A stretch of DNA of 64,000 nt from Candidatus Methylomirabilales bacterium (GTDB taxonomy: Bacteria > Methylomirabilota > Methylomirabilia > Methylomirabilales > CSP1-5). Below are positions 4,058 through 34,830 of the stretch, in pieces. A program made the position numbers and the translations under genes. The stretch is taken from contig JBHIAH010000006.1 of the NCBI GenBank assembly GCA_046758505.1, forward strand, positions 1,544-65,543, read 5' to 3'. The notes below the pieces were generated by a model. The model had not been told where the DNA came from and searched no databases. It saw only the letters and a list, made by a program, of their open reading frames with translations. Within the stretch, counting starts at the first letter, position 1; each line of letters starts with the position of its first letter.

Positions 4058-4277
4058 GAACGACGACCGGTGACCGAGGACCGATGAGCAACCACTCGTA
4101 AATCGCCCACAGTCAGGCGTGAATCGTCATTGGTGAACGATCAGGTGTAAACGATAACCATTGACTGTTGACCAGTTGCCCATTCGCCATGAACTGTGAA
4201 GAGTGAACCCTGAACTGAGAGCGACGTGCCGTCGGTCCTCAACGGTGAACGGTCGTCGGTCATCGGTCGTCGGTTCG
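4058..4277. repeat. family G short repeats (GACCGATGA / TCATCGGTC units) as an inverted pair bracketing the purH-purD spacer
   Basis: 4058-4089 reads gaacgacgaccggtgaccgaggaccgatgagc. 4231-4277 reads gtcggtcctcaacggtgaacggtcgtcggtcatcggtcgtcggttcg. The arms gaggaccga and tcggtcctc are complementary. The same units recur at 15470-15545, 28597-28688 and 34768-34830. Confidence 0.6.
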
Positions 4278-4291
4278 CGCGGAGGTCGCCC

Positions 4292-6227: not shown

Positions 6228-7280
6228 ATGACGGATCTCCGGGAAAAGATCCGCCTCACGACGCTCTCTCACGGCGCCGGTTGAGCGTGCAAGATCAGTC
6301 CCGCGGACCTGGCTCAGGTGCTGAGTCAGTTACCCACCTTTCACGATTCGCACATCCTCGTGGGGCCCGAGACGGCTGACGATGCCGCCGTCTATCAGCT
6401 CACCGACGACCTAGCCGTCGTGCAGTCGGTGGACTTCATCACCCCCGTGGTGGACGACCCGTACGCCTGTGGAGCGGTGGCCGCGGCCAACTCCCTGAGC
6501 GACATCTATGCCATGGGGGGGCGGCCGGTCTTCGCCCTGAACCTCGTCGGCTTTCCCACCGGCAAGCTCCCCCTGCACGTCCTCTCGTCCATCCTTCAGG
6601 GAGGCGCCGACAAGGTCAAGGAGGCTGAAGCATCCATTGTGGGGGGGCACAGCATTGACGATCCCGAACCCAAGTACGGGTTGGTCGTCACCGGCGTCGT
6701 GCATCCGAAAAAGGTCTTCACGAATGCCGGCGCCCGGGTTGGAGATGATCTGATTCTGACCAAGCCGCTCGGGATCGGGATCATCACCACCGGGATCAAG
6801 CGGGAGCACGTGTCCGAGCAGACCGTGGAGCAGGCCGTCCGCGTCATGACCACGCTGAATAAAGCGGCCGCCGACGTGATGGTGGCGGTGGGGGTCAATG
6901 CCTGCACCGACATCACCGGCTTTGGCCTCCTTGGTCACCTGCACGAAATGACAGCAGGCAGCGGGGTCGGCGCCCGCATCTCCCTCAAGGCGGTCCCGGT
7001 CCTCCCCGAAGCCTGGAGGCTGGTCACGGAAGGGATTTGTCCGGGCGGCACGAAACGCAACCGCCAGGCGCTGGAGGAGACGATCACGTGGGCCCCGGAA
7101 ATTAGCGACGAGAGCCAACTGGTCCTCTGCGACGCCCAGACCTCGGGCGGACTGTTGATGGCCGTGCCCAAGGAACACAGTGCCCAACTGGTGAAGGGGC
7201 TGCAAGCCGCCAAAACGCTCGCCGCCGCGCGGGTCGGCGAGATCGTCGCGGGGGCCGGCGAGATCGACGTGACGCCCTGA
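6228..7280 (+). CDS. selD: selenide,water dikinase (selenophosphate synthetase) with an in-frame TGA (Sec) at 6282-6284
   Basis: The track only lists 6318-7280. An ATG at 6228 (RBS GGAGGG at 6217-6222) is in the same frame and reads MTDLREKIRLTTLSHGAG-TGA-ACKISPADLAQVLSQL. This is the SelD N-terminal motif G-A-G-(C/U)-x-C-K with TGA at the catalytic Cys/Sec position. The rest is a PurM-like body (DAAV, SDIYAMGG, DITGFGLLGH). Confidence 0.85.
6309..6329 (+). promoter_or_regulatory. candidate bacterial SECIS hairpin downstream of the selD UGA
   Basis: CTGGCTCAG-GTG-CTGAGTCAG forms a 9 bp stem (one G-U pair) with a GUG apical loop. It starts 25 nt after the TGA. Confidence 0.45.
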
Positions 7281-14496: not shown

Positions 14497-15471
14497 GTGA
14501 AGGCGATTCGCGTGCACGAGTATGGGGGGCCGGAGGCCCTCACGCTGGAAGAGCTGCCCATTCCGCACCCGGGGTCGGGCCAAGCGCTCGTAAAGATCGA
14601 GGCCGCCGGCCTCAACTTTATCGATGTGTACCACCGGACCGGCCTCTACCCCGCTCCCCTCCCCCGCCTCATGGGCGTCGAGGGGGCCGGCGTCGTGGAG
14701 GCCGTCGGCCCGGAGGTGACAGAGGTCCGGGTGGGCGACCGTGTGGCCTACGCCTCCACGGCCGCCCCCGGCGCCTATGCGGAATACGCCCTCATCCCCT
14801 CGGCGCGCCTGGTCATCATTCCTCCAGGTGTGGACGCGCGCGCGGCGGCCGCCGCGATGCTCCAGGGCATGACGGCGCACTACCTGACGCGGTCCACGTA
14901 TCCCCTCAAGAAAGGAGAGGCCTGTCTCATCCATGCGGCGGCAGGGGGGGTCGGATTGCTTCTCTGCCAGATGGCCCGGCAGGCAGGGGCACGGGTCTTT
15001 GGAACGGTCTCGACCGAAGAGAAGGCCCGCCTCGCGCGTGAGGCGGGGGCCGAGGTGGCAATCCGCTACACCACGCAGGACTTCGAGGCAGAGGTCACGC
15101 GGCTCACCGACGGCCAGGGCGTGCAGGTCGTCTACGACTCGGTCGCCAAGGATACTTTTGAGAAGAGCCTGAACTGTCTGGCACCCCGCGGCACCCTGGT
15201 CCTCTACGGACAGTCGAGCGGACCCGTCCCTCCCTTCGATGCAAATGCGTTGAGCCAGAAGGGCTCGCTCTTTCTCACGCGCCCCACCCTCGCCCACTAC
15301 ATCCGCACGCGGGAGGAACTGATCGAGCGCGCACACGACGTCCTACACGGAGTGTCCACCGGCACCCTGAAGCTCCGGATCGGTGCGACGTTCCCCCTTG
15401 CAGATGTCGCCGAGGCCCACTGCCAGCTCGAGGGGCGCAAGACGGCCGGCAAAGTCCTGTTGATCCCATGA
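14497..15471 (+). CDS. qor: NADPH:quinone oxidoreductase (zeta-crystallin / MDR family)
   Basis: GTG 14497 is preceded by AGGAGG (14483-14488). VKAIRVHEYGGPEAL..AAGLNFIDVY.R.G.YP and AAAGGVGLLLCQ Rossmann motif. Confidence 0.87.
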   Translation: MKAIRVHEYGGPEALTLEELPIPHPGSGQALVKIEAAGLNFIDVYHRTGLYPAPLPRLMGVEGAGVVEAVGPEVTEVRVGDRVAYASTAAPGAYAEYALIPSARLVIIPPGVDARAAAAAMLQGMTAHYLTRSTYPLKKGEACLIHAAAGGVGLLLCQMARQAGARVFGTVSTEEKARLAREAGAEVAIRYTTQDFEAEVTRLTDGQGVQVVYDSVAKDTFEKSLNCLAPRGTLVLYGQSSGPVPPFDANALSQKGSLFLTRPTLAHYIRTREELIERAHDVLHGVSTGTLKLRIGATFPLADVAEAHCQLEGRKTAGKVLLIP

Positions 15472-15545
15472 TCGATGACCAACGACGGATGACCGGTGAC
15501 CGTGAAGAGCAGCGGTGAGCGAATAAATAGCTGAGAGTTGTGAGC
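15470..15545. repeat. family G short repeat block after qor
   Basis: gatcgatgaccaacgacggatgaccggtgaccgtgaagagcagcggtgagcg..ctgagagttgtgagc. It shares the gaccg/gtgacc units and the gtgaagag..ctgagag tail with 4058-4277. Confidence 0.5.
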
Positions 15546-15610
15546 TTTCTTGGCCGTTCGAGTCTACACATCACAAGGATCCTGGAGGGGTGCGGCAAAG
15601 GAGGAACGCC

Positions 15611-16675
15611 ATGAGGCATCGCATTGCGGTGATCCCGGGCGATGGGATCGGTAAGGAGGTGGTACCTGAAGGCATGCGCGTGCTCGAGGCCGCCGGGCGC
15701 CGATTCGGCTTTGACTTCGAGTGGACGACCTTCGACTGGAGCTGCGAGGTGTATGCGAAGACCGGTCGCATGATGCCCGAGGATGGGCTCGATCAGCTCC
15801 TAAACTTCGAGGCAATCTATCTCGGTGCGGTCGGCTTTCCCGGGGTGCCCGACCATGTCTCGCTGTGGGGACTACTCATCCCGATCCGGCGCGCGTTCCG
15901 CCAGTATATTAACCTCCGTCCGGTGCGGCTGTTGAAGGGCGTGCAGTCCCCCCTCGTCGGGCGCACGCCCCGGGACATCGACCTCGTGATCGTGCGCGAG
16001 AACAACGAGGGCGAGTATTCGGCGATCGGGGGCCGGCTGTATCATGGCACCGCCGAAGAGCTGGTGGTGCAGCAGTCGGTGTTTACGCGCCAGGGCTGCG
16101 ACCGCGTGATGCGCTACGCCTTCGAGCTTGCCATGGGCCGGCCGGCGCGGCATCTCACCTCGGCCACCAAATCGAACGGGATCATCCACAGCATGCCATA
16201 CTGGGATGAGCGGTTCGCCGCCATGGCGAGGAACTATCCAGCGATCACGACCGACCAGTACCACATCGACATCTTGGCCGCCCATTTCGTCCAGCATCCC
16301 GACTGGTTCGACGTGATCGTGGCCAGTAACCTCTTTGGGGATATCCTCTCCGACCTCGGCCCGGCGATCGCCGGCTCGATCGGGACGGCCCCCGGGGCCA
16401 ACATCAACCCGGAGAAGGACTACCCCTCGATGTTCGAGCCGGTGCACGGCTCGGCGCCGGACATCGCCGGGAAAGACCTCGCCAACCCGATCGGACAGAT
16501 CTGGTCGGGCGCTCTGATGCTCGATCACCTCGGACATCCCGAGGCGGCCCGAGCCATCGTAGCCGCGATCGAGAACGTCGTGGCGGAGGGGACGGTGCTT
16601 ACGCGCGACCTGGGGGGGAAGGCCGCGACCGCCGAGGTGGCCGAGGCGATCGCCACCAGGACGGCGGCCGGCTAA
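15611..16675 (+). CDS. tartrate dehydrogenase / D-malate dehydrogenase-like (isocitrate/isopropylmalate dehydrogenase family)
   Basis: Start taken at MRHRIAVIPGDGIGKEV. Also RENNEGEYS, NLFGDILSDL and EPVHGSAPDIAGK; overall closest in pattern to TtuC-type enzymes. Confidence 0.83.
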   Translation: MRHRIAVIPGDGIGKEVVPEGMRVLEAAGRRFGFDFEWTTFDWSCEVYAKTGRMMPEDGLDQLLNFEAIYLGAVGFPGVPDHVSLWGLLIPIRRAFRQYINLRPVRLLKGVQSPLVGRTPRDIDLVIVRENNEGEYSAIGGRLYHGTAEELVVQQSVFTRQGCDRVMRYAFELAMGRPARHLTSATKSNGIIHSMPYWDERFAAMARNYPAITTDQYHIDILAAHFVQHPDWFDVIVASNLFGDILSDLGPAIAGSIGTAPGANINPEKDYPSMFEPVHGSAPDIAGKDLANPIGQIWSGALMLDHLGHPEAARAIVAAIENVVAEGTVLTRDLGGKAATAEVAEAIATRTAAG

Positions 16676-16710: not shown

Positions 16711-16741
16711 AGGGGTGCGGAGAGGGATGGCGGGGTGGCGC

Positions 16742-16772
16742 GGAATGTCAAGATTCAAGACCCGACCCTAAC
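16742..16772 (+). repeat. family C repeat, partial copy (C3)
   Basis: ggaatgtcaagattcaagacccgaccctaac. It shares the aatgtcaAGATnCnAG..GACCCTA core with 21257-21315, 23198-23261 and, inverted, 23623-23650. Confidence 0.6.
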
Positions 16773-16833: not shown

Positions 16834-17610
16834 TCAGAGCAAGATCCCCAAGATACGAATGACTAACCGTTGGCCCCTGGACCGTTCGCCCCTGGAGTTT
16901 GTCGCGCGTATTTTTTCCTGCGTACAGATCTCACGCGCGTTTGTTGCTGCATCGCCGGTAATCGAGACGCCAAAGTCGATCCCCTTAAGGTCGTCGACGG
17001 TGAAGGGCCGCTCGGGGCGCACTTGCCTGCTGTTGTAATACACGACGTCTTTTTCGGTGTCCACGAACAGATACAGCCACTCGCCCGATGGGAGGTAGGC
17101 CTCTTGCCTCATCGCACCGAACCCCGTGCCGAGAAGTAAGAGGTAGCGCCCATCCGTGGACCACAGCAGGCATTCTGATTCCGGCGGTCCCTCGTCCGGC
17201 GAGCGAAAAACATCTTTGTAATGAGTCGTTTCCCCGCGGTCGTTCGTCGTGAGGCGGACGACGAAGTGACGCTCGGCAAACGCAGGCACCTCCTGGACCT
17301 CAGCCACCACCCGACCATCCGGGGAGGGAGCCGACAGACTCACGTATACCTGGGTCCACGACGCGAGAACAATCGGCAAAAACAGGCTCATCACACTCGC
17401 CAGTGCGGCCAACACGATCTTGAGATACATGCGCGATGTGAAGAAACACCCGAGCAAGACGGCGGCCAGGACAATGATGAATGAAATGAGGCCATTGCCT
17501 CCGAAGTAAGCATTGGCGAACAGGGCCACTATGAGTATTGTGAAAACCCCAAGTTTCAGCGCGACGCGCCCCGATCGCCGATCCCCCGGTGTCTGCTGTG
17601 CGAGTTCCAC
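16834..17610 (-). CDS. hypothetical membrane protein (3 N-terminal TM helices plus a soluble C-terminal domain)
   Basis: 258 aa, GTG start. Hydrophobic helices in residues ~20-95. The C-terminal part contains SPDGR.. and WSTDGRYLLL, reminiscent of single beta-propeller blades. No family recognised. Confidence 0.55.
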   Translation of the reverse strand: MELAQQTPGDRRSGRVALKLGVFTILIVALFANAYFGGNGLISFIIVLAAVLLGCFFTSRMYLKIVLAALASVMSLFLPIVLASWTQVYVSLSAPSPDGRVVAEVQEVPAFAERHFVVRLTTNDRGETTHYKDVFRSPDEGPPESECLLWSTDGRYLLLLGTGFGAMRQEAYLPSGEWLYLFVDTEKDVVYYNSRQVRPERPFTVDDLKGIDFGVSITGDAATNAREICTQEKIRATNSRGERSRGQRLVIRILGILL

Positions 17611-17630: not shown

Positions 17631-17677
17631 CTTAAAAAAGCAAAACGCCTTGACGGCTCTCCTTCACCGTAAAGGCG
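17631..17677 (-). terminator. intrinsic-terminator-like hairpin plus U-tract (part of junction module A1)
   Basis: Minus strand reads CGCCUUUACGG-UGAAGGAGAG-CCGUCAAGGCG (11 bp stem, one mismatch) followed by UUUUGCUUUUUU. Confidence 0.55.
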
Positions 17678-17695
17678 CTGCAATCATTGTGCCGG
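17678..17695 (-). promoter_or_regulatory. sigma-54-type -24/-12 promoter motif upstream of 16834-17610
   Basis: Minus strand reads cCGGCACaatgaTTGCAg, with GG-N10-GC spacing identical to the TGGCAC-N5-TTGCA consensus. It lies about 70 nt upstream of the GTG start. Confidence 0.55.
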
Positions 17696-18477: not shown

Positions 18478-18519
18478 GAAAAGTAAAACGCCCTCACGGC
18501 CTCCTTCGCCGCAAAGGCG
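18478..18519 (-). terminator. intrinsic-terminator-like hairpin plus U-rich tract (junction module A2)
   Basis: Minus strand reads CGCCUUUGCGG-CGAAGGAGG-CCGUGAGGGCG, where every position pairs if G-U is allowed, followed by UUUUACUUUUC. It is homologous to 17631-17677. Confidence 0.5.
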
Positions 18520-18537
18520 CTGCAACCCTTATGCCAC
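18520..18537 (-). promoter_or_regulatory. sigma-54-type -24/-12 promoter motif upstream of 17735-18433
   Basis: Minus strand reads gTGGCATaagggTTGCAg, with exact consensus spacing. Confidence 0.55.
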
Positions 18538-18598
18538 GACTAGAGCACATCACAGGCCTGGCCCCGCCCCTCTTTGCCCAAGACGCGACCCATCGAAC

Positions 18599-18656
18599 AT
18601 CGGCGTTCGCCGGCACGCCTGAAGTGCGGCGCGCTCAATTGCCCTGCCCCCGAGCC
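18599..18656 (+). repeat. family F repeat, copy F1
   Basis: atcggcgttcgccggcacgcctgaagtgcggcgcgctcaattgccctgcccccgagcc. 54 of 58 positions are identical to 22089-22146 by hand alignment. It contains the dyad GCAC-N7-GTGC (18613-18627). Confidence 0.75.
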
Positions 18657-19249: not shown

Positions 19250-19566
19250 AGGGCACCTGGGAGCCATCTGGCGCGCACCGTCCTCAGGGCGGGCGGCTCG
19301 GGCTACCAGAATAAAGGCCGTAACCTATTGATATGAGGGTGATCAGCCGCAGGGCAGGCTTTTAGGAGGGTTGGCTGAAAGTCTGCGGGTGAAAGCAGTA
19401 TGCCCGTCCACCACAAAGCCGTATCCGCGCCGTCCTTTGCCAAAATGGCCCTTGAATCCTCGGCGTGCGGTCGATGGTGCGGGAAGGGGTAAAGGGGGAT
19501 CCTGGGGTGGCGCGCAATATCAGGATGCGCGGCCTGACCCTACAACCAGTCATGTTCGTGGCAATG

Positions 19567-20679
19567 TCAGCCAGAACTTGCTTCCACCATGCAAACTGCC
19601 TGGCGAAGCCTCTTGATTGCTTCCTCGCGGCCAACAGCAACGGACTGCACGGTGGGCGCGTCGAACAGGAGGCGTGCGTAATCTGCGTTTATAGCCCAGC
19701 TTACGTCCGGTGGCGCTCCCTTCGGGATGGACCGGAAACCCTGCAAAGCGGCAGCTGAATCTATGATGCCAACAACTTCTCCTAGTTCATTTACAATTGG
19801 ACCGCCAGAGTAATCTGCCTGAATTGGGACTGAAATTTGTAGGACGGACGCCTCACCTTTAGGTCCAGAAAGTGCGCTGATGACCCCCTCCAATGATCTT
19901 GCTTCTTCACCGAGGTGGTCCGTACCAGGATAACTCACCGTGAAAACACGCTCACCCAGGCGGGCAGATCCTGTCGACACTAAAGGGAGGAACTGTGGCG
20001 TGCGAGGACCAATTTGCAGAACCGCAAGATCGTTCCCGGCGTTATACGTTTGGACCTTGGCGTTTGTGACTGTTCCGTCAGCCAAGTGAACTTGTATGGA
20101 CTTCGCGCCCTGGACAACGTGGTAGGTCGTTAGCAGGATCCCATTCCCACGCACCGCAAAGCAAGTCCCACGAATGTTTTGATCTCTTTTATCTTTTGGC
20201 TCCACCTTTGGAATCTCAGGAGTAGCCTGTGCGCTTGCAACTGATTCCTCCTCTACATCTTCCTCTGCGTCTTTTGGTGGTGCGGGAACCGGCGCCTGAT
20301 TGATGGCAAGGATGCGATCGTCGGGACCATAGATGATGGTGATCCGGTGCTTATCGGCTTGGGAAGCCTCGATGGGTGTGCCAGCGACCTCCCAAATACC
20401 CAGGGTCAGAACATCCAACACAGCGTGCCCGGCAGCACGTCCCGCACTTGGCTCGTTGCCTAGCTCATACTCGTAGATGTCGGTTCGCCCACCATCCGGG
20501 GTCGTCACGGAGGAGACGGGACTGCCCAGTTGCAACTCCGCCTCCCCGCGGGTTGAGCCCACGCGTAACGCGCCCAAATTTGGTTCCCTTTTACCACTCA
20601 TCGCCATACCGACAGAACATGCTGTTAGCGATGAAAGGAGGAACACACCTGCCAACAAAGCAGTTAGCTGCTTTATCAT
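19567..20679 (-). CDS. lipoprotein with C-terminal trypsin-like (S1/HtrA-type, no PDZ) serine protease domain
   Basis: Start taken at MIKQLTALLAGVFLLSSLTAC (lipobox LTAC), not the upstream track start 20796. Catalytic triad context: TTYHVV, NDLAVLQI, DYSGGPIV. Confidence 0.75.
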   Translation of the reverse strand: MIKQLTALLAGVFLLSSLTACSVGMAMSGKREPNLGALRVGSTRGEAELQLGSPVSSVTTPDGGRTDIYEYELGNEPSAGRAAGHAVLDVLTLGIWEVAGTPIEASQADKHRITIIYGPDDRILAINQAPVPAPPKDAEEDVEEESVASAQATPEIPKVEPKDKRDQNIRGTCFAVRGNGILLTTYHVVQGAKSIQVHLADGTVTNAKVQTYNAGNDLAVLQIGPRTPQFLPLVSTGSARLGERVFTVSYPGTDHLGEEARSLEGVISALSGPKGEASVLQISVPIQADYSGGPIVNELGEVVGIIDSAAALQGFRSIPKGAPPDVSWAINADYARLLFDAPTVQSVAVGREEAIKRLRQAVCMVEASSG

Positions 20680-20805
20680 AATCAAACCCCCTCGTGGTTT
20701 CCCTTTCAACTTCAGAAATCTATGCGACCTCACTTTGCCATCAGATCCTGTAAAACAGGACACAAAAAATGCATTCTGCTGGACTGTGCCAAGCAATAAA
20801 GGCTA

Positions 20806-20823: not shown

Positions 20824-21256
20824 AGATAGCTGGAAGCTATCACGGCCCTTACTTCAGCAACACTGCCATGGGACTCGGCTAAAACCGGAAAGCTGCCTCT
20901 TTCGGATAGGGATCATGTTCGAGGTAAAACTTCGGGAAGCTGGGTGTGAAACGGTGTGCATAAGATCATAAGATAAAAAAGGAGAGGGCTGCACCGAGAG
21001 CCGGGACGCCTGTCGAGCCGGAGCGTGCCGGAAAATAAGTTTGGCTGTGTGGTGGGCGGTCGAGTGGGCCCGAAGGGGGCGAGGGACTATGCCTGCCCCT
21101 TCTTCTTTCTGGGGGATTTCAGTTGGCCCCGGGGGACCGGTGTGCCGGGGGCTCGGGGCAACCGCACCCTCCAGATCTTCTTACGTGGCTTCTGGAGCTT
21201 TCCCACGAGAGCGATACGCCCCTCTCCGCCGGCCCGAGGAGGCTGCGCCAACCGCG

Positions 21257-21315
21257 CATCAGACCCGCGGCCGCTCGCCGCATTCCAAGTGCAATGTCAG
21301 GATTCAGGACCCTAC
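21257..21315 (+). repeat. family C repeat, copy C1 (just downstream of brnA)
   Basis: catcagacccgcggccgctcgccgcattccaagtgcaatgtcaggattcaggaccctac. About 42 of the first 50 positions match 23198-23261. Confidence 0.7.
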
Positions 21316-21332
21316 ACTAGAGCTACGGCCGG

Positions 21333-21560
21333 TCACGCCACAGTCTTCCAGTTCATCTCCAGGCGCTTCCCAGTGGCCGCGCAATCCCGAAGGTATAGGT
21401 TAATGAGCGTCTGATACGGGATCCCACACTCCTCCGAGATCGACTTGAAGTACTTGATCGTCTGCTCGTCGAGTCGGATGGTGACCTGCCGCTTGAGGCG
21501 GCTCGCGTAGGGGTTCCGCCGTGCCTTCGAAAAGTCGTATTCTTTCTTCATGTGTGCCAC
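21333..21560 (-). CDS. brnA: BrnA-type antitoxin (ribbon-helix-helix)
   Basis: 75 aa. KKEYDFSKARRNPYA..VTIRLDEQTIKYFK is characteristic of BrnA. It overlaps brnT by 13 nt. Confidence 0.8.
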   Translation of the reverse strand: MAHMKKEYDFSKARRNPYASRLKRQVTIRLDEQTIKYFKSISEECGIPYQTLINLYLRDCAATGKRLEMNWKTVA

Positions 21561-21844
21561 CTTTGATTGTAGATGTCCCGTTCCCTGCGGGTCGCCTTGC
21601 GTGCGGAGATGATCTGGATCACCCCCTGGTCCTCCCGGTAGGCATGAGCCACCACAAGGATGCGCAGCTTCGCACTGAGCCCAAGAAGGATGAACCGGTC
21701 TTCCGCGGTTGCGTGCTCGGGGTCGTCGATCAATAACGCGTGCTCGTCCGCGAAGACCGTCTCTGCCTCGGCAAACGGTACTCGGTGCTTCCGCCTGTTC
21801 TGCGAGTCCTTCTTGGGATCCCAGGCGAACCGCAGATCAGACAT
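21548..21844 (-). CDS. brnT: BrnT-type toxin (DUF497 ribonuclease)
   Basis: 98 aa. FAWDPKKDSQNRRKHRVPFAEAETVF..RFILLG..RILVVAH..IISARKATRRE is the canonical BrnT pattern. Confidence 0.85.
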   Translation of the reverse strand: MSDLRFAWDPKKDSQNRRKHRVPFAEAETVFADEHALLIDDPEHATAEDRFILLGLSAKLRILVVAHAYREDQGVIQIISARKATRRERDIYNQRWHT

Positions 21845-21850
21845 ACTTAC

Positions 21851-21879
21851 ATCATAACTACGAAGTAGGGTCTTGTCAA
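21851..21879 (-). promoter_or_regulatory. sigma-70 promoter of brnTA giving a leaderless mRNA
   Basis: Minus strand reads TTGACA (21879-21874), a 17 nt spacer, TATGAT (21856-21851), then 6 nt and ATG (21844). The -35 box is embedded in a short inverted family C core (gtagggtcttgtcaag, 21865-21880). Confidence 0.65.
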
Positions 21880-22088
21880 GATATCTCTCGTGTGCGCCTA
21901 ACGCTAACGCCGAGCCGCCGCTGTTGAGCGAGCGGTCTGAACCAACCCTGCCCCTTCCCGCACTACGGCCATCTGAAGCGTCCGCAGAATATCAAAATAT
22001 CAACGTCAGACCCTCATGCGAGCATACGCCCGATAGTTTCGGAATTCCGAAAACGTGGGGGAAATGGGAAATGGCCAGCCTCGACTCT

Positions 22089-22146
22089 ATCGGCGTTCGC
22101 CGGCACCCCTGAAGTGCGGCGTACTGAATTGCCCTGCCCCCGAGCC
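22089..22146 (+). repeat. family F repeat, copy F2
   Basis: atcggcgttcgccggcacccctgaagtgcggcgtactgaattgccctgcccccgagcc, 54/58 identical to F1. The adjoining cctgaccccgcccctc block (22184-22205) also occurs next to F1 (18556-18580), but on the other side. Confidence 0.75.
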
Positions 22147-22245
22147 TCGACCAATCCAATTACAAATAGCAAACCGCCGGCCTGACCCCGCCCCTCCACT
22201 GCAACACGATCCTCAGTATGCTCGACGGGAAGAGGGGTGGCCATC

Positions 22246-22296
22246 ACCCGGTCCGCAGCGGCTGATGAAGAGAGCCGATGCAATTGACAATTGTAG
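22246..22296 (+). repeat. family E repeat, copy E1, abutting the truncated HEPN gene
   Basis: cagcggctgatgaagagagccgatgcaattgacaattgtagactcgacccc, 45/51 identical to 23128-23178. It contains the CAATTG-A-CAATTG double palindrome and a CGGCT..AGCCG hairpin. Confidence 0.75.
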
Positions 22297-22306
22297 ACTC
22301 GACCCC

Positions 22307-22519
22307 TTATTCGCCCTCATGGGTTCTCGGGAACGGGACGGCTAGCAGGGTTAATAGCCCCTTGAGATATTTTTCGGCGCACTGCTGGGCGTGAAAACAC
22401 ACCGTGCCTAGGGGGCATCTCGCGCGGAGGGTTAATGTATGCTCGGCAGTGGTGAGATCTTCCTCAGCCTTCTCGACCCATTGGCGAACCACCCGAAGCG
22501 TCTCAGGCGACACGCTCAT
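22307..22519 (-). pseudogene. HEPN-domain toxin, 3'-truncated (about half length)
   Basis: 70 aa. WVEKAEEDLTTAEHTL..FHAQQCAEKYLKGLL..FPRTH then EGE-stop. HEPN partners of MNT are usually about 120-140 aa and continue after the (R)xxxxH motif. The reading frame ends 8-10 nt from repeat E1. Confidence 0.65.
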
Positions 22520-22835
22520 ACAACACCTCGCCCTCGCGCAGGGCAGGATAGATGATCGTCCCGACAGTATCGCGGTATCGCTCGACCTCCTCAGGGGTGA
22601 CCACGATCACGTCCTTCGGGAACCCGACGCCCGCGAGGGCGAGATCGATCTCGACGGCGGTCTGGCGCTTAGAGCCGGAAACGCGCATCACTACCAGCAG
22701 GTCGGCGTCGCTGTCCGGCCCACCCGTCCCGCGAGCCTGCGACCCGAACAGGATGATCTTTTCCGGATCGAAGCGGTCCACGATCCGTCGCACCATCTCC
22801 CCGATGATCTGCTGTCTCCAGTCTCCGTCGTCCAC
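22503..22835 (-). CDS. MNT-type nucleotidyltransferase antitoxin (pairs with HEPN)
   Basis: 110 aa, GTG start. ILFGSQARGTGGPDSDADLLVV is the GS-x10-DxD pol-beta NTase motif. It overlaps the HEPN ORF by 17 nt. Confidence 0.85.
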   Translation of the reverse strand: MDDGDWRQQIIGEMVRRIVDRFDPEKIILFGSQARGTGGPDSDADLLVVMRVSGSKRQTAVEIDLALAGVGFPKDVIVVTPEEVERYRDTVGTIIYPALREGEVLYERVA

Positions 22836-23127
22836 GGCCTTTTCCGATCACAGCCTTCGCTAACTGCTACGGCTGCCAGGGCCAGCCAGCCCTTTCTCTC
22901 GCTCACGGTAGCATGATACACAACACCGCTAGACTTGACGAGCCCTTCCTGCCAGAGACCGGGAGACGTGCCAGGCGAGGACTGCACGGGGTAGCGTGTC
23001 GGCAGGGCGCACGTGCGGGGCCCGCCCCAGGTACATGGAGTCGAGCTGGAGGGCGACGACGGGCATGGCGTCCCACCGGCCCGGCCGGCTGGCGGCAGCC
23101 AGTGCGAGGGACATTCAGCCAACACCC

Positions 23128-23178
23128 GAGCGGCTGATGAAGAAAGCCGAAGCAATTGACAATTGTAGACCTCACCCC
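23128..23178 (+). repeat. family E repeat, copy E2
   Basis: gagcggctgatgaagaaagccgaagcaattgacaattgtagacctcacccc. Confidence 0.75.
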
Positions 23179-23197
23179 ATCCCTCAAATTTCTACAG

Positions 23198-23261
23198 CAT
23201 CAGGCCCGCTGCCGCTCGCCGCATTCCGATGGCAATGTCAAGATCCTAGGCCCGACCCTAC
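23198..23261 (+). repeat. family C repeat, copy C2
   Basis: catcaggcccgctgccgctcgccgcattccgatggcaatgtcaagatcctaggcccgaccctac. Confidence 0.7.
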
Positions 23262-23285
23262 GACCTTATACTCCGATCCGTGACA

Positions 23286-23618
23286 CTATTCAGGTGCGAA
23301 AAAATCCTCATCGATGCCGAGAAGTGATAAACGACGCCTTGAAACACCTATGTTATTCTCAATCATTAGCTCGACAATACGCTGTCCGTCGATAAGCATA
23401 ATGGGGACTGCCCCACGTTTGAATCCCACCTGTTTTGCCTCCGCGGTAAAGGACGACGTCGTAATGAATATTCCTTGGTCGAAGTCCCCAGTAATTGCAC
23501 CCCGAAACTTATCGATTTCTGGGCGAGAAATCGTCGTTTGTTGCCACCGCTTGCTTTGGAAAGCCGCATTAATGTTCAAAATGCCTTGCCGGAGCTTACC
23601 ATGACCGTCGATCCGACT
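23286..23618 (-). pseudogene. Mrr-type restriction endonuclease, C-terminal catalytic-domain fragment only
   Basis: The open frame from 23618 reads SRIDGHGKLRQGILNINAAFQSKRWQQTTISRPEIDKFRGAI..GIFITTSSFTAEA..IMLIDGQRIVELMIENNIGV. This matches the Mrr_cat pattern (IDG.., QxKRW, FITTS.F, LIDG..L..LM). A TGA lies immediately upstream at 23619-23621, inside the family C4 repeat. The N-terminal winged-helix half is missing. Confidence 0.7.
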
Positions 23619-23622
23619 TCAT

Positions 23623-23650
23623 GTAGGGTCAGGTCTTGAATCTTGAATTT
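23623..23650 (-). repeat. family C repeat core, inverted copy C4
   Basis: Plus strand gtagggtcaggtcttgaatcttgaattt is the reverse complement of aaattcaagattcaagacctgaccctac. It forms an inverted pair with C2 around the Mrr fragment. Confidence 0.65.
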
Positions 23651-23853
23651 TCCCCATCCCCGCGTTCACCCGACCAGGACCCAAGTATCTTGACGCCCGA
23701 TTCTCGCCCCCCCAAAACACAAAGCACCGGGGAGCCTGTGGGGCCCGCCCGGCGCTTTGCCCTTGTCAAAATCTCCCCTGCCTACATCCTCATCCATCCG
23801 GCCCGTCCCTGGATAGTTGAGGGTCGAGAGCGGAGCGTTGAGTGTCAATTACC

Positions 23854-28570: not shown

Positions 28571-28596
28571 TTCAAAATTTCGACGTCCAATGTCCG

Positions 28597-28688
28597 CGAT
28601 TCGACGACCGATGACCCACGACCGATGACCGCAAAAAACCACGAACCTGCTTGTTCTTCAGTCGTTGGTCAACGGTCATCGGTCGGCC
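28597..28688. repeat. family G short repeats as an inverted pair between the nucleoside hydrolase and DUF488 genes
   Basis: cgaccgatgacccacgaccgatgaccg (28603-28631) and cggtcatcggtcg (28674-28686). gaccgatgaccg and cggtcatcggtc are exact complements. Confidence 0.6.
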
Positions 28689-34338: not shown

Positions 34339-34782
34339 TCACTCGGCGGGCTGGACGAGCAGGGTGAGCCCCCGGACCGCCCGCACCCGCACCCGCCCCC
34401 CCGGGGGAATCGGCTCGTCTGTCCGCATCGCCTCGGCCCGCCACAGTTCTCCGCCCACCCGGATGTACCCTGACGGCGCCAGCGGCTCTTGCGCGACGCC
34501 TTCGGCCCCGATGAGCTGCTCCGCCCCCGCCCTCCCATTGGCCTCATAGGCGTGGCGGACAAAGGGGTAGAGAACGAGGTCCTTGACCACCCAGAGGAGC
34601 AAAAGCCCCACGGCCGCCCACAGCGGAAGGTCGATCCATCGCCGCAGGAGCGCGAGGCCCGCCGCCGCTAGAATCCAGCCGGGGATCTGGATCACAAGAT
34701 ATTTCGCCAGGGGCCGCCGCCACCATTCAGCTCTGTTCGCCATTCTCCCCTGCCCATCATCAGCTCTGCGGTCAGCGGTCAT
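34339..34782 (-). CDS. NfeD-family membrane protein
   Basis: 147 aa. Two TM helices followed by an OB-like tail GYIRVGGELWRAE..GGRVRV. Confidence 0.65.
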   Translation of the reverse strand: MTADRRADDGQGRMANRAEWWRRPLAKYLVIQIPGWILAAAGLALLRRWIDLPLWAAVGLLLLWVVKDLVLYPFVRHAYEANGRAGAEQLIGAEGVAQEPLAPSGYIRVGGELWRAEAMRTDEPIPPGGRVRVRAVRGLTLLVQPAE

Positions 34783-34830
34783 CGGTCACTGCCGGTCATC
34801 GTCCCAGTCACTGTTCGTCGGTCCCTGACG
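34768..34830. repeat. family G short repeat block spanning a gene junction
   Basis: gcggtcagcggtcatcggtcactgccggtcatcgtcccagtcactgttcgtcggtcc. It covers the last codons of 34786-35718 and the first codons of the NfeD gene. Confidence 0.5.

Follow-up and report, generated by a model that had tools for sequence, protein, structure and literature searches.

The short repeats that lie around a brnTA toxin–antitoxin pair and an Mrr gene fragment in the DNA analysed here (64 kb from a Methylomirabilales MAG, hereafter the window) are probably orphan, single-arm copies of the terminal inverted repeats (TIRs) of TIRtrons that have come to rest at junctions, so that brnTA and the Mrr fragment would have the outer ends of separate, decayed insertions on either side and would not be their cargo. 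Read in this way, inverted repeats around small genes need no new cassette or mini-transposon system; they would be solo ends from a known, poorly studied and (semi-)domesticated Y1 transposase family. The range of the TIRtron family would be extended to Methylomirabilota, and in this toxin–antitoxin-rich island its ends would mark genes that are broken and an attC that was lost. The observations behind this reading are the identity of the family, the polarity of its ends in other genomes, the positions of the copies at junctions and the conservation of the brnTA promoter.

Copies of the repeat in the window

The element CAAGAT..GACCCTAC is a genuine repeat family, called family C, and not a chance resemblance. 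Five matches to its degenerate core TCARGATNNNRGNCCYGACCCTA with at most three mismatches were found in the 64-kb window against 0.12 expected (~40-fold), a count that was reached in 0 of 100 shuffles. All five are confined to 16.7–23.7 kb, within a variable island that extends over 16.7–25.1 kb and in which small genes, either toxin–antitoxin or orphan, are arrayed in the same orientation. The copies are the following.

16721..16772, plus strand: C copy of subfamily a, solo TIR-type, at the left island edge (profile E = 2.1e-8)
19493..19544, plus strand: C copy of subfamily a, 1 mismatch to the core pattern (profile E = 0.017)
21232..21315 (21256–21319 in the C1/C2 alignment), plus strand: C1, subfamily b, 81% identical to C2 over 64 nt
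23197..23261, plus strand: C2, subfamily b, 0 mismatches to the core pattern (profile E = 2.4e-5)
23623..23651, minus strand: C4, the sole inverted copy (profile E = 1.8e-9)

The first of these had been listed in an earlier note on this DNA as a partial copy at the island edge (16742–16772) and is real (profile E = 2e-8); the second had been overlooked. A profile built from 66 family copies recovers C4, 16744, C2 and 19516 with E = 2e-9 to 0.02, a check that is partly circular because the window's own copies are among the 66. In the window, one strand has four solo arms, and C2 and C4 form one tail-to-tail pair. No hairpin dimer was found among these copies, and a degenerate candidate for the partner arm of C4, at 23664–23682, is not significant (fold z-score +0.2). 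Four of the five copies have the tetranucleotide GTAG, but the base preceding TAGGG is variable in other genomes.

The four same-strand copies share a position: each follows a gene on the minus strand, 18–62 nt beyond its stop codon. The outer end GACCCTA of the edge copy is 62 nt from the stop codon of the gene at 16834–17610, and the distances of the outer ends of the other three are 23 nt (19493..19544, from the trypsin-like protease gene at 19567–20796, minus strand), 18 nt (C1, from brnA) and 25 nt (C2, from the Mrr fragment). Random decay fails to explain the common orientation and post-stop placement of all four.

Towards the inner side, C1 consists of a lineage-specific left extension, GCCAACC..GCATCAG..CGCATTCC..GCAATG, followed by the core with a deletion of 3–4 nt. 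Such left extensions, 50–85 nt long, are conserved between the window and a locus in another genome, L052 (loci outside the window are denoted by L numbers), with which C2 shares 96% identity across 50 nt and C1 84% across 75 nt, and this conservation suggests a longer lineage-specific unit. Repeat D7, which has a twin at 22257–22306, may be the inner part of that unit.

23129..23178, plus strand: repeat D7, 18 nt left of C2 and 90% identical to its twin

Directly next to the twin is a HEPN gene that has lost its 3' end and matches profile positions 1–54 of 117. An origin of D7 or of the left extensions as remnants of the 3' end of a TIRYT gene was also considered and rejected; tblastn and a TIRYT profile gave nothing better than E = 1.

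Identity of the family

By sequence match, the core is assigned to the TIR of the widespread, transposon-like RAYT/TIRYT "TIRtron" family. Its 23-mer, TCAAGATTCAAGACCTGACCCTA, is present in exact or near-exact form in ~30 loci from MAGs of many phyla, and in nine of these the adjacent gene encodes a protein of ~285 aa that starts MARPLRIEY.GALYH. Two of the nine products were checked against NCBIfam and Pfam; they match NF047646 REP_Tyr_transpos with 84 bits (cut-off 80) as well as Pfam Y1_Tnp, and both carry a helix-turn-helix at the C-terminus. The 23-mer flanks TIRYT genes in L016, L006, L012, L019, L025 and L048, and elsewhere the core is also found in small non-autonomous hairpin elements. 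When the window copies were compared with these TIRYT-flanking TIRs, C4 agreed with the cross-phylum consensus at 23 of 23 positions and the copy at 16748–16770 at 22 of 23, the latter being 96% complementary to C4 (23624–23646, minus strand).

TIRYT genes and TIRtrons are described as having TIRs that share GGGGWSAS and that occur as single, dimeric or grouped copies (Di Nocera 2013, PMC3733652). At the outer end, GGGGTCAG is found in L011, L017, L022 and L031, and the outer ends in the window, TAGGGTCAG, TAGGGTCGG or TAGGGTCCT, agree with GGGGWSAS at 6–7 of its 8 positions. C-termini of the Bac_DnaA_C or helix-turn-helix type characterize TnpA_REP subclass 2.1 (Quentin 2018, PMC6006769), which has been equated with RAYT group 1 (bioRxiv 10.1101/2020.03.09.984088), a group that is distributed over 21 bacterial classes (Bertels 2017, PMC5581495). 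Within the 64-kb window, tblastn and a protein profile run against the six-frame translation found no TIRYT gene or remnant, and neither a dimer or hairpin nor a pair of gene-flanking arms with outward-pointing outer ends was seen there.

Polarity of the ends

The heptamer GACCCTA is the outer terminus in all 16 pairs that were classified in other genomes. In some of these the arms are separated by 2–125 nt and form hairpins or MITE-like elements; in the others they stand ~0.9 kb apart on the two sides of a transposase gene. The hairpin pairs have fold z-scores of about -8. The order of an intact element is 5'-TAGGGTCAGGTCTTGAATCTTGA – gene or short loop – TCAAGATTCAAGACCTGACCCTA-3'. The geometry in the window is the opposite, with the outer termini facing the brnTA and Mrr genes. 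Because GACCCTA is the outer end elsewhere and faces the genes here, brnTA and the Mrr fragment would be flanking DNA, outside the element ends. Neither outward termini nor target-site duplications, the marks of a MITE that carries cargo, were found. The earlier note had proposed to look for such duplications just outside the pairs; no direct repeats of this kind are visible around the pairs in the window, and neither duplications nor empty-site alleles were obtained as proof of insertion.

The brnTA unit and its junctions

The gene unit and the sites upstream of it are as follows.

21333..21844, minus strand: toxin–antitoxin pair, brnT (21548–21844) and brnA (21333–21560)
21851..21882, minus strand: brnTA promoter and operator (11/12 promoter match; conserved in L058–L067)
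21896..21902, minus strand: GTTAGGC heptamer, of the sequence type of an integron R' core

A short inverted copy at 21865–21880 had been thought to close the right side of brnTA and to supply the TTGACA −35 box of its promoter. The promoter is real: TTGACA-17-TATGAT (21879–21851) is the top sigma-70 match of the island with 11 of 12 positions, with the −35 box TTGACA at 21874–21879, a palindrome CTACTTCGTAG at 21858–21868 and the −10 box TATGAT at 21851–21856. However, the sequence is no C copy. The stretch 21865–21882 is not matched by the 66-copy profile even at E < 50, and ten homologous loci of other metagenomes have TCTTGACAgGnCCCTACnTTGTAGTTATGrTG conserved at the corresponding place before brnT, a pattern by which 21865–21882 is recognized as the pair's own promoter and operator. 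Since 21865–21880 does not belong to the family, the window has a single inward-facing pair, C2/C4, and not two.

At the DNA level, other metagenome contigs carry brnTA units with 90–93% identity to this one. Homology with L059–L062 begins at 21893, and the GTTAGGC heptamer at this point is likely to be a former 5' cassette boundary. An attC site is taken here as an imperfect palindrome, 50–150 nt long, that is bounded by an R'' box RYYYAAC and an R' box GTTRRRY. Sites of this kind, ending in GTTATGC or GTTAGGC, accompany brnTA in L063 and L064, where the pair is an integron-type cassette. On the other side, the homology of the unit ends at 21313–21322, at the attC R'' box ACATAAC of L063 and L064. 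The attC of brnTA is missing in the window, and C1 starts 6 nt past the expected attC start; by its position, C1 appears to mark the lost attC of the brnTA cassette. L059 and L060 have a weak C-like copy within the brnTA attC, 7–12 nt inside it. Joint travel of brnTA and C was considered and rejected, a C-type copy being present after brnA only in the window and, weakly, in L059/L060, and absent in five other contexts. An exact-match look-up of BrnT and of the tartrate dehydrogenase ORF of the window gave no match.

The Mrr fragment between C2 and C4

C2 and C4 are mutually inverted and 363 nt apart, and enclose the following feature.

23286..23612, minus strand: C-terminal part of a gene for a small Mrr_cat restriction endonuclease (match to profile positions 48–115 of 115)

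The fragment lacks the N-terminal 43–67 codons of the gene, which are found nowhere else in the window. Its homology begins at 23612, 10 nt from the outer end of C4, and C4 would thus mark the point at which the gene was truncated. The repeat had been said to supply the stop codon that terminates the homology; an in-frame TGA does exist at 23619–23621, directly outside GACCCTAC.

A possible route to solo ends

A TIRtron is a transposon-like unit, and the product of its gene is a REP-associated tyrosine transposase of the HUH/Y1 type that ends in a C-terminal helix-turn-helix (TIRYT, RAYT group 1 or TnpA_REP subclass 2.1). Its two TIR arms could pair in single-stranded DNA, and the paired form is presumably what the enzyme recognizes. 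Solo arms would then be immobile remnants of an insertion that was followed by deletion or rearrangement, and the source enzyme may have been a TIRYT encoded elsewhere or in the past. In the window the arms are found at broken junctions: C4 abuts the N-truncated Mrr gene, and C1 replaces the brnTA attC. An attempt to date the island by synteny was unsuccessful: in the closest relatives, whose tartrate dehydrogenase is 87–89% identical at the amino-acid level, that gene is followed by unrelated genes or by the contig end, and no C copies were found in them. With downstream genes that differ, these relatives are uninformative on the origin of the island.

Other explanations

It is unlikely that the C units are functional elements recruited by the host, such as protein-binding sites, 3'-UTR elements or insulators between toxin–antitoxin operons. 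Their position and orientation at gene 3' ends, which are constant across the window, L052 and possibly L059, would fit such a role, as would the strong conservation of the extended unit between the window and L052, and roles of this kind are known for the REPs of other bacteria (Di Nocera 2013, PMC3733652). However, the units have no stable secondary structure and look like neither terminators nor promoters in the scan; there are only five copies in 64 kb, all in one variable island, and they coincide with broken genes. Rfam gave no match in the island, and in nine related loci it gave a tRNA plus two sub-threshold chance matches, mir-3119 and whalefall-1.

Mobile elements that target integron attC sites include IS1111-attC elements and group IIC-attC introns. 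By analogy, TIRYT-type ends might specifically invade the single-strand hairpins of attC and turn toxin–antitoxin cassette arrays into fixed islands with half-TIR junctions, which we consider distinctly improbable; in a stronger form of this idea, a Y1/HUH enzyme may reshuffle small gene modules at half-sites as a second, integrase-independent cassette system. The position of C1 at the expected attC start of a former cassette and the weak copy inside the same attC in L059/L060 favour invasion, as does the placement of the four same-strand copies just past stop codons, the normal start position of attC. Subclass 2.1 TnpA_REP has also been proposed to drive the expansion of small gene arrays (procA) in picocyanobacteria (bioRxiv 10.1101/2020.03.09.984088). 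Unlike in the IS1111-attC and group IIC-attC cases, a C element inserted into an otherwise intact attC was not seen. One clear and one weak case suggest that C targets attC, against seven other brnTA contexts that have no C copy. Near TIR-family loci in other genomes, the search for attC returned only false positives in coding regions.

The earlier note had taken the inward-facing inverted copies as the ends of small non-autonomous elements carrying brnTA or the Mrr fragment. The sequence type was right, a TIRtron TIR, and the inverted C2/C4 pair around the Mrr fragment and the mobility of brnTA as a unit, with near-identical units in many unrelated contexts, would be expected of such elements. 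The bracket-and-cargo geometry is nevertheless very improbable: the polarity is contrary to that of every pair classified elsewhere, the right-hand "copy" at brnTA is a conserved promoter, no C pairs flank brnTA homologs in seven other contexts, target-site duplications are not visible, and an Mrr gene truncated at the repeat has the look of a flanking gene and not of cargo.

An integron-like cassette array in which C is the equivalent of attC, the boundary recognized by a recombinase that had also been suggested, can be given very little weight. The island does resemble integron cassettes and CALINs in that its small genes, toxin–antitoxin or orphan, are arrayed in one direction, with a C unit just past the stop codon of four of them; the brnTA homologs in L063 and L064 bear a true attC, and the GTTAGGC core survives at 21896–21902. 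A complete integron requires an integron integrase gene and a CALIN does not. Against this model, the C units lack R''/R' complementarity and a significant fold, and the recurring repeat is a transposon end and not attC, its core being identical to the TIRs on either side of Y1 transposase genes. A simple attC finder, which recovers the L063/L064 sites, found none in the intergenic regions of the island even with relaxed rules, a negative that is weak because the finder is crude. No integrase, IntI included, was detected among the scanned island genes and their neighbours, nor among the 25 of 51 families listed for 52 further ORFs, taken from outside 14.4–27.8 kb; the window yielded no transposase gene that could act at such a boundary.

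That the motif is no more than a promoter sequence which recurs in the context of TTGACA is hardly credible, for all that 21865–21882 truly is a promoter and that every C unit has TCTTGACA or TCCTGACA on the minus strand, since a −10 box at the right spacing is present in none of the five true C units, the units are 360–500 nt from the next start codon, and the 23-mer is kept as a transposon end across phyla.

Comparison with known repeat systems

Interpreted as orphan TIRtron ends, the window copies agree with described TIRtrons in that their core matches TIRs flanking genes for Y1/HUH transposases with a C-terminal helix-turn-helix, in that single TIRs have been reported alongside dimeric and grouped ones, and in the spread of the family over many phyla. 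They differ in occurring as solo arms only, with neither transposase gene nor dimer, in having lineage-specific inner extensions of 30–60 nt and in lying at the junctions of toxin–antitoxin cassettes. With the REP/REPIN–RAYT systems of Pseudomonas and enterobacteria, which are built on GTAG palindromes, they share the character of short intergenic repeats that are linked to a domesticated Y1 transposase of the IS200-like type; in both, the mobile form is likely to be the hairpin dimer, and copies are mostly situated downstream of genes. However, the single C arm is not a palindrome, and few copies are present here. The C family has signs of horizontal spread across phyla, whereas REPINs are specific to a species and inherited vertically. 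Identification as a classical REP/REPIN was rejected, as single C units fold no better than shuffles (z-scores of -2.0 to +0.8, mostly near 0).

Short tandem duplications were observed immediately beyond the outer terminus. The literature searched yielded no description of these duplications outside the termini, nor of the near-exact conservation of the 23-mer across phyla, and the two features together could help to clarify how the TIRYT enzyme acts.

The C repeat in the variable island

The variable island (~16.7–25.1 kb of the window) has a GC content of 53–61%, versus 62–70% in the upstream flank, and is bordered on one side by a tartrate dehydrogenase gene (15590–16675, +), on the other by a gene for an RsmF-type methyltransferase. 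The minus strand is the coding strand of every island gene: three without a Pfam match, a trypsin-like protease, brnT and brnA, a HEPN/MNT pair, a C-terminal Mrr fragment, two hicAB pairs and a zinc-ribbon ORF. In two relatives (L055, L056), contigs stop ~300 nt past the tartrate dehydrogenase gene, which would fit a repeat-rich or variable region at the equivalent position in those genomes. A degenerate pattern of the C core, the CAAGAT… repeat with GACCCTA at one end, matched five times in the window (0.12 expected), always inside the island:

16721–16772, +, C copy, subfamily a
19493–19544, +, C copy, subfamily a
21232–21315, +, C1, subfamily b
23197–23261, +, C2, subfamily b
23623–23651, −, C4, inverted copy

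The two subfamilies are split by their inner (left) extensions. C1 and C2 share 81% identity over 64 nt, and the copy at 16748–16770 is 96% complementary to the inverted copy at 23624–23646; the good copy at 19493–19544 was absent from the earlier note's list. GACCCTAC by itself occurs five times in the window, versus 1.24 expected. No C unit scored as a promoter or terminator in the window scan, no hairpin dimer was found among the copies, solo arms fold no better than shuffles, and an Rfam scan of the island gave no match.

Relationship to TIRtrons

Searching 185,579 species genomes for TCARGATNNNNGNCCYGACCCTA yielded 51 loci, 10 of which are obvious chance matches (conserved Pseudomonas coding sequence; a tRNA-adjacent terminator in Clostridia). 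TCAAGATTCAAGACCTGACCCTA, exact or with one or two changes, is found in ~30 further loci, in MAGs of deltaproteobacteria, Sedimenticolaceae, NC10, Nitrospirota, Nitrospinae, Scalindua, Patescibacteria, Planctomycetia, Elusimicrobia, Actinomycetota and others. In nine of these the core adjoins a gene for a ~285-aa protein starting MARPLRIEY.GALYH.TSRGN, with an inverted arm 20–60 nt 5' of the ATG and a direct arm at or overlapping the stop codon. Both proteins tested match NCBIfam REP_Tyr_transpos (above cut-off) and Pfam Y1_Tnp, and both have a C-terminal helix-turn-helix. Elsewhere 2–125 nt separate the two arms, which fold into very stable hairpins (z-score ~ −8).

On sequence grounds, these findings assign the C core to the terminal inverted repeats (TIRs) of TIRYTs, a group of Y1 REP-associated tyrosine transposases, and the C repeat to the already known TIRtron/TIRYT class. 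PMC3733652 describes TIRs in place of REPs, occurring singly, as dimers or grouped, with a common GGGGWSAS motif. The class corresponds to TnpA_REP subclass 2.1, whose C-terminus is DnaA_C-like or HTH (PMC6006769), and to RAYT group 1, which has the broadest taxonomic spread among the RAYT groups (PMC5581495). Among the papers searched, none was found to give the particular sequence of the C core. No TIRYT gene or remnant was found within the 64-kb window. The suggestion that inward-facing C copies resemble the TIRs of a mini-element is partly supported: the sequence type is right, as such TIRs flank Y1 genes, but the geometry is wrong, GACCCTA pointing outward in 16 of 16 classified arm pairs from other genomes.

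The TIRYT ORF runs into the right-hand TIR in four of the nine genes (L006, L012, L019, L025), so that TCA AGA TTC AAG ACC TGA is read as the C-terminal residues, (S/A)R(F/L)KT, followed by the stop; this coding overlap may be a further reason why the 23-mer is so strongly conserved. Locus-specific tandem duplications (period 8–17 nt, 2–13 copies, restart often GACCCTA or CCCTA; for example GACCCTAAGACGTTT GACCCTAAGACGTTC) lie just beyond the GACCCTA terminus at 20 of 65 family copies, versus 0 of 63 control windows. Such duplications may record end joining by the enzyme.

L006, 5996–6170, tandem duplication
L051, 6237–6300, tandem duplication
L025, L013, L012, L016, L024, L039 and L048, tandem duplications
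Window, none

Genes and cassettes at the outer ends

Since GACCCTA is the outer end, any DNA that adjoins it is flanking sequence. Two outer ends, C2 at 23261 and C4 at 23623, lie on either side of the Mrr fragment (23286–23612, −). Compared with its closest full-length relatives (133–176 aa), the fragment begins at base 23612, which corresponds to residues 26–71 of those proteins; the window contains no trace of the N-terminal part that should precede it, with the first half of the DGGIDG motif. The break in the Mrr gene therefore lies 10 nt away from the C4 terminus, and the truncation looks like that of a gene broken by an element end, the far side having been lost afterwards.

The right-hand bracket proposed for brnTA (21333–21844, −), a sixth C copy at 21865–21882, was undetected by a profile of 66 C-family copies. 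Ten homologous loci, drawn from unrelated metagenomes (BrnT identity 74–95%), keep the segment 5' of brnT; it reads TCTTGACAAGACCCTACTTCGTAGTTATGATG in the window and TCTTGACAGGCCCTACGTTGTAGTTATGATG, GTTGACAGTGCCCTACTTTGTAGTTATGGTG or ACTTGACAATGACTTACATTGTAGTTACGATG elsewhere. It matches the sigma-70 consensus at 11/12, with an operator-like palindrome, CTACnTTGTAG, between the −35 and −10 boxes; GACCCTAC is one variant here, replaced by GGCCCTAC, GTCCCTAC or TGCCCTAC in other loci. The segment is the promoter of brnTA itself. The earlier note's observation is accordingly confirmed in part: the family and an inverted copy (C4) are real, but the right bracket of brnTA is spurious.

Five other loci share DNA homology with brnTA (90–93% identity), which extends from 21893 (22013 for L058) down to 21313–21322, 11–20 nt beyond the brnA stop codon. 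In two metagenome loci, L063 and L064, the unit is a textbook integron cassette that begins with a GTTATGC core and ends with a 93-nt attC (ACATAAC…GTTATGC); the cassette after it has a 50-nt attC (GCATAAC…GTTAGGC). The attC sites and cassette arrays with close brnTA homologs are:

L063, 694–786 and 1336–1385
L064, 2229–2321
L061, 145–197

GTTAGGC is retained in the window at 21896–21902, where brnTA homology starts. At the other end, the window stops matching the homologs exactly where the attC R'' box begins (slash: …CCGTAGC/TCTAGT then GTAGGGTC, versus …GTAGC/ACATA… in L058, L059 and L063), so C1 occupies the place of the cassette's attC. None of the island's intergenic regions gave an attC-like site with a crude finder, and no integrase was found among the island genes and neighbours scanned or among the 25 of 51 families listed for 52 further ORFs outside 14.4–27.8 kb. 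The contigs that carry most of the close brnTA homologs are very short (0.5–1.6 kb), which would be expected for cassettes between assembly-breaking repeats. A palindrome, TTTCGGAATTCCGAAA (variants TTTCGAGAATTCTCGAAA, TTTTCGCAATTGCGAAAA), recurs 100–250 nt 5' of brnTA promoters and between the C units of L052, a related contig:

Window, 22037–22052
L059, 396–413 and 1145–1176
L060, 299–316
L062, 925–942
L052, ~6296–6315

A metagenome scan with the subfamily-b pattern matched two contigs. L052 has two C units in the same orientation, one of which matches C2 at 96% identity across 50 nt, along with RelE/ParE-type cassettes and a hicB-like gene that shares 74% identity with its counterpart in the window. 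It repeats the window layout, the C outer end lying toward the 3' end of a small gene and the inner end toward the promoter side of the toxin–antitoxin operon that follows.

Possible origin of the solo arms

Where C outer ends lie, one gene is truncated and one attC has been lost. TIRYT-type elements or hairpin derivatives may have inserted into this island rich in cassettes, perhaps where single-stranded DNA forms hairpins, as at attC sites; subsequent deletion or recombination would have taken away one arm and neighbouring DNA, and the remainder would be immobile solo arms at module junctions. Insertion by IS200/IS605 relatives is strand-specific and replication-linked, which the shared C orientation would fit, although five copies are too few for a test. 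A functional or cassette-shuffling role for the C units keeps a small probability, because the proposed mechanism does not account for their constant placement 18–62 nt past stop codons, their conserved lineage-specific inner extensions or how solo arms arise.

Other repeats

Within the HEPN/MNT pair, the HEPN gene (22307–22519) is truncated at its 3' end (70 aa, Pfam profile positions 1–54 of 117 only). The break coincides with the start of repeat D7' (22257–22306), whose twin (23129–23178) lies 18 nt left of C2, and is a further case of a broken gene at a repeat boundary. Intergenic families D4 and D5 show 83–93% identity (18544–18656 versus 22089–22196), and D16 (17659–17693 versus 18501–18535) is a terminator-like hairpin module 3' of each of two adjacent genes. 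The island is a mosaic built from reused intergenic modules.

Outside the island, a separate short intergenic repeat, (A)CGGTCATCGGTCGTCGG, often in inverted pairs, may be the lineage's own REP-like family:

Window, 4243–4279, 15465–15492, 28595–28685 and 34763–34789
L052, 2096–2154 and 3751–3782

Three copies of a 75-nt repeat at 61470–63903 (64–75% identity), ~1.1–1.25 kb apart, probably reflect three paralogous adjacent genes.
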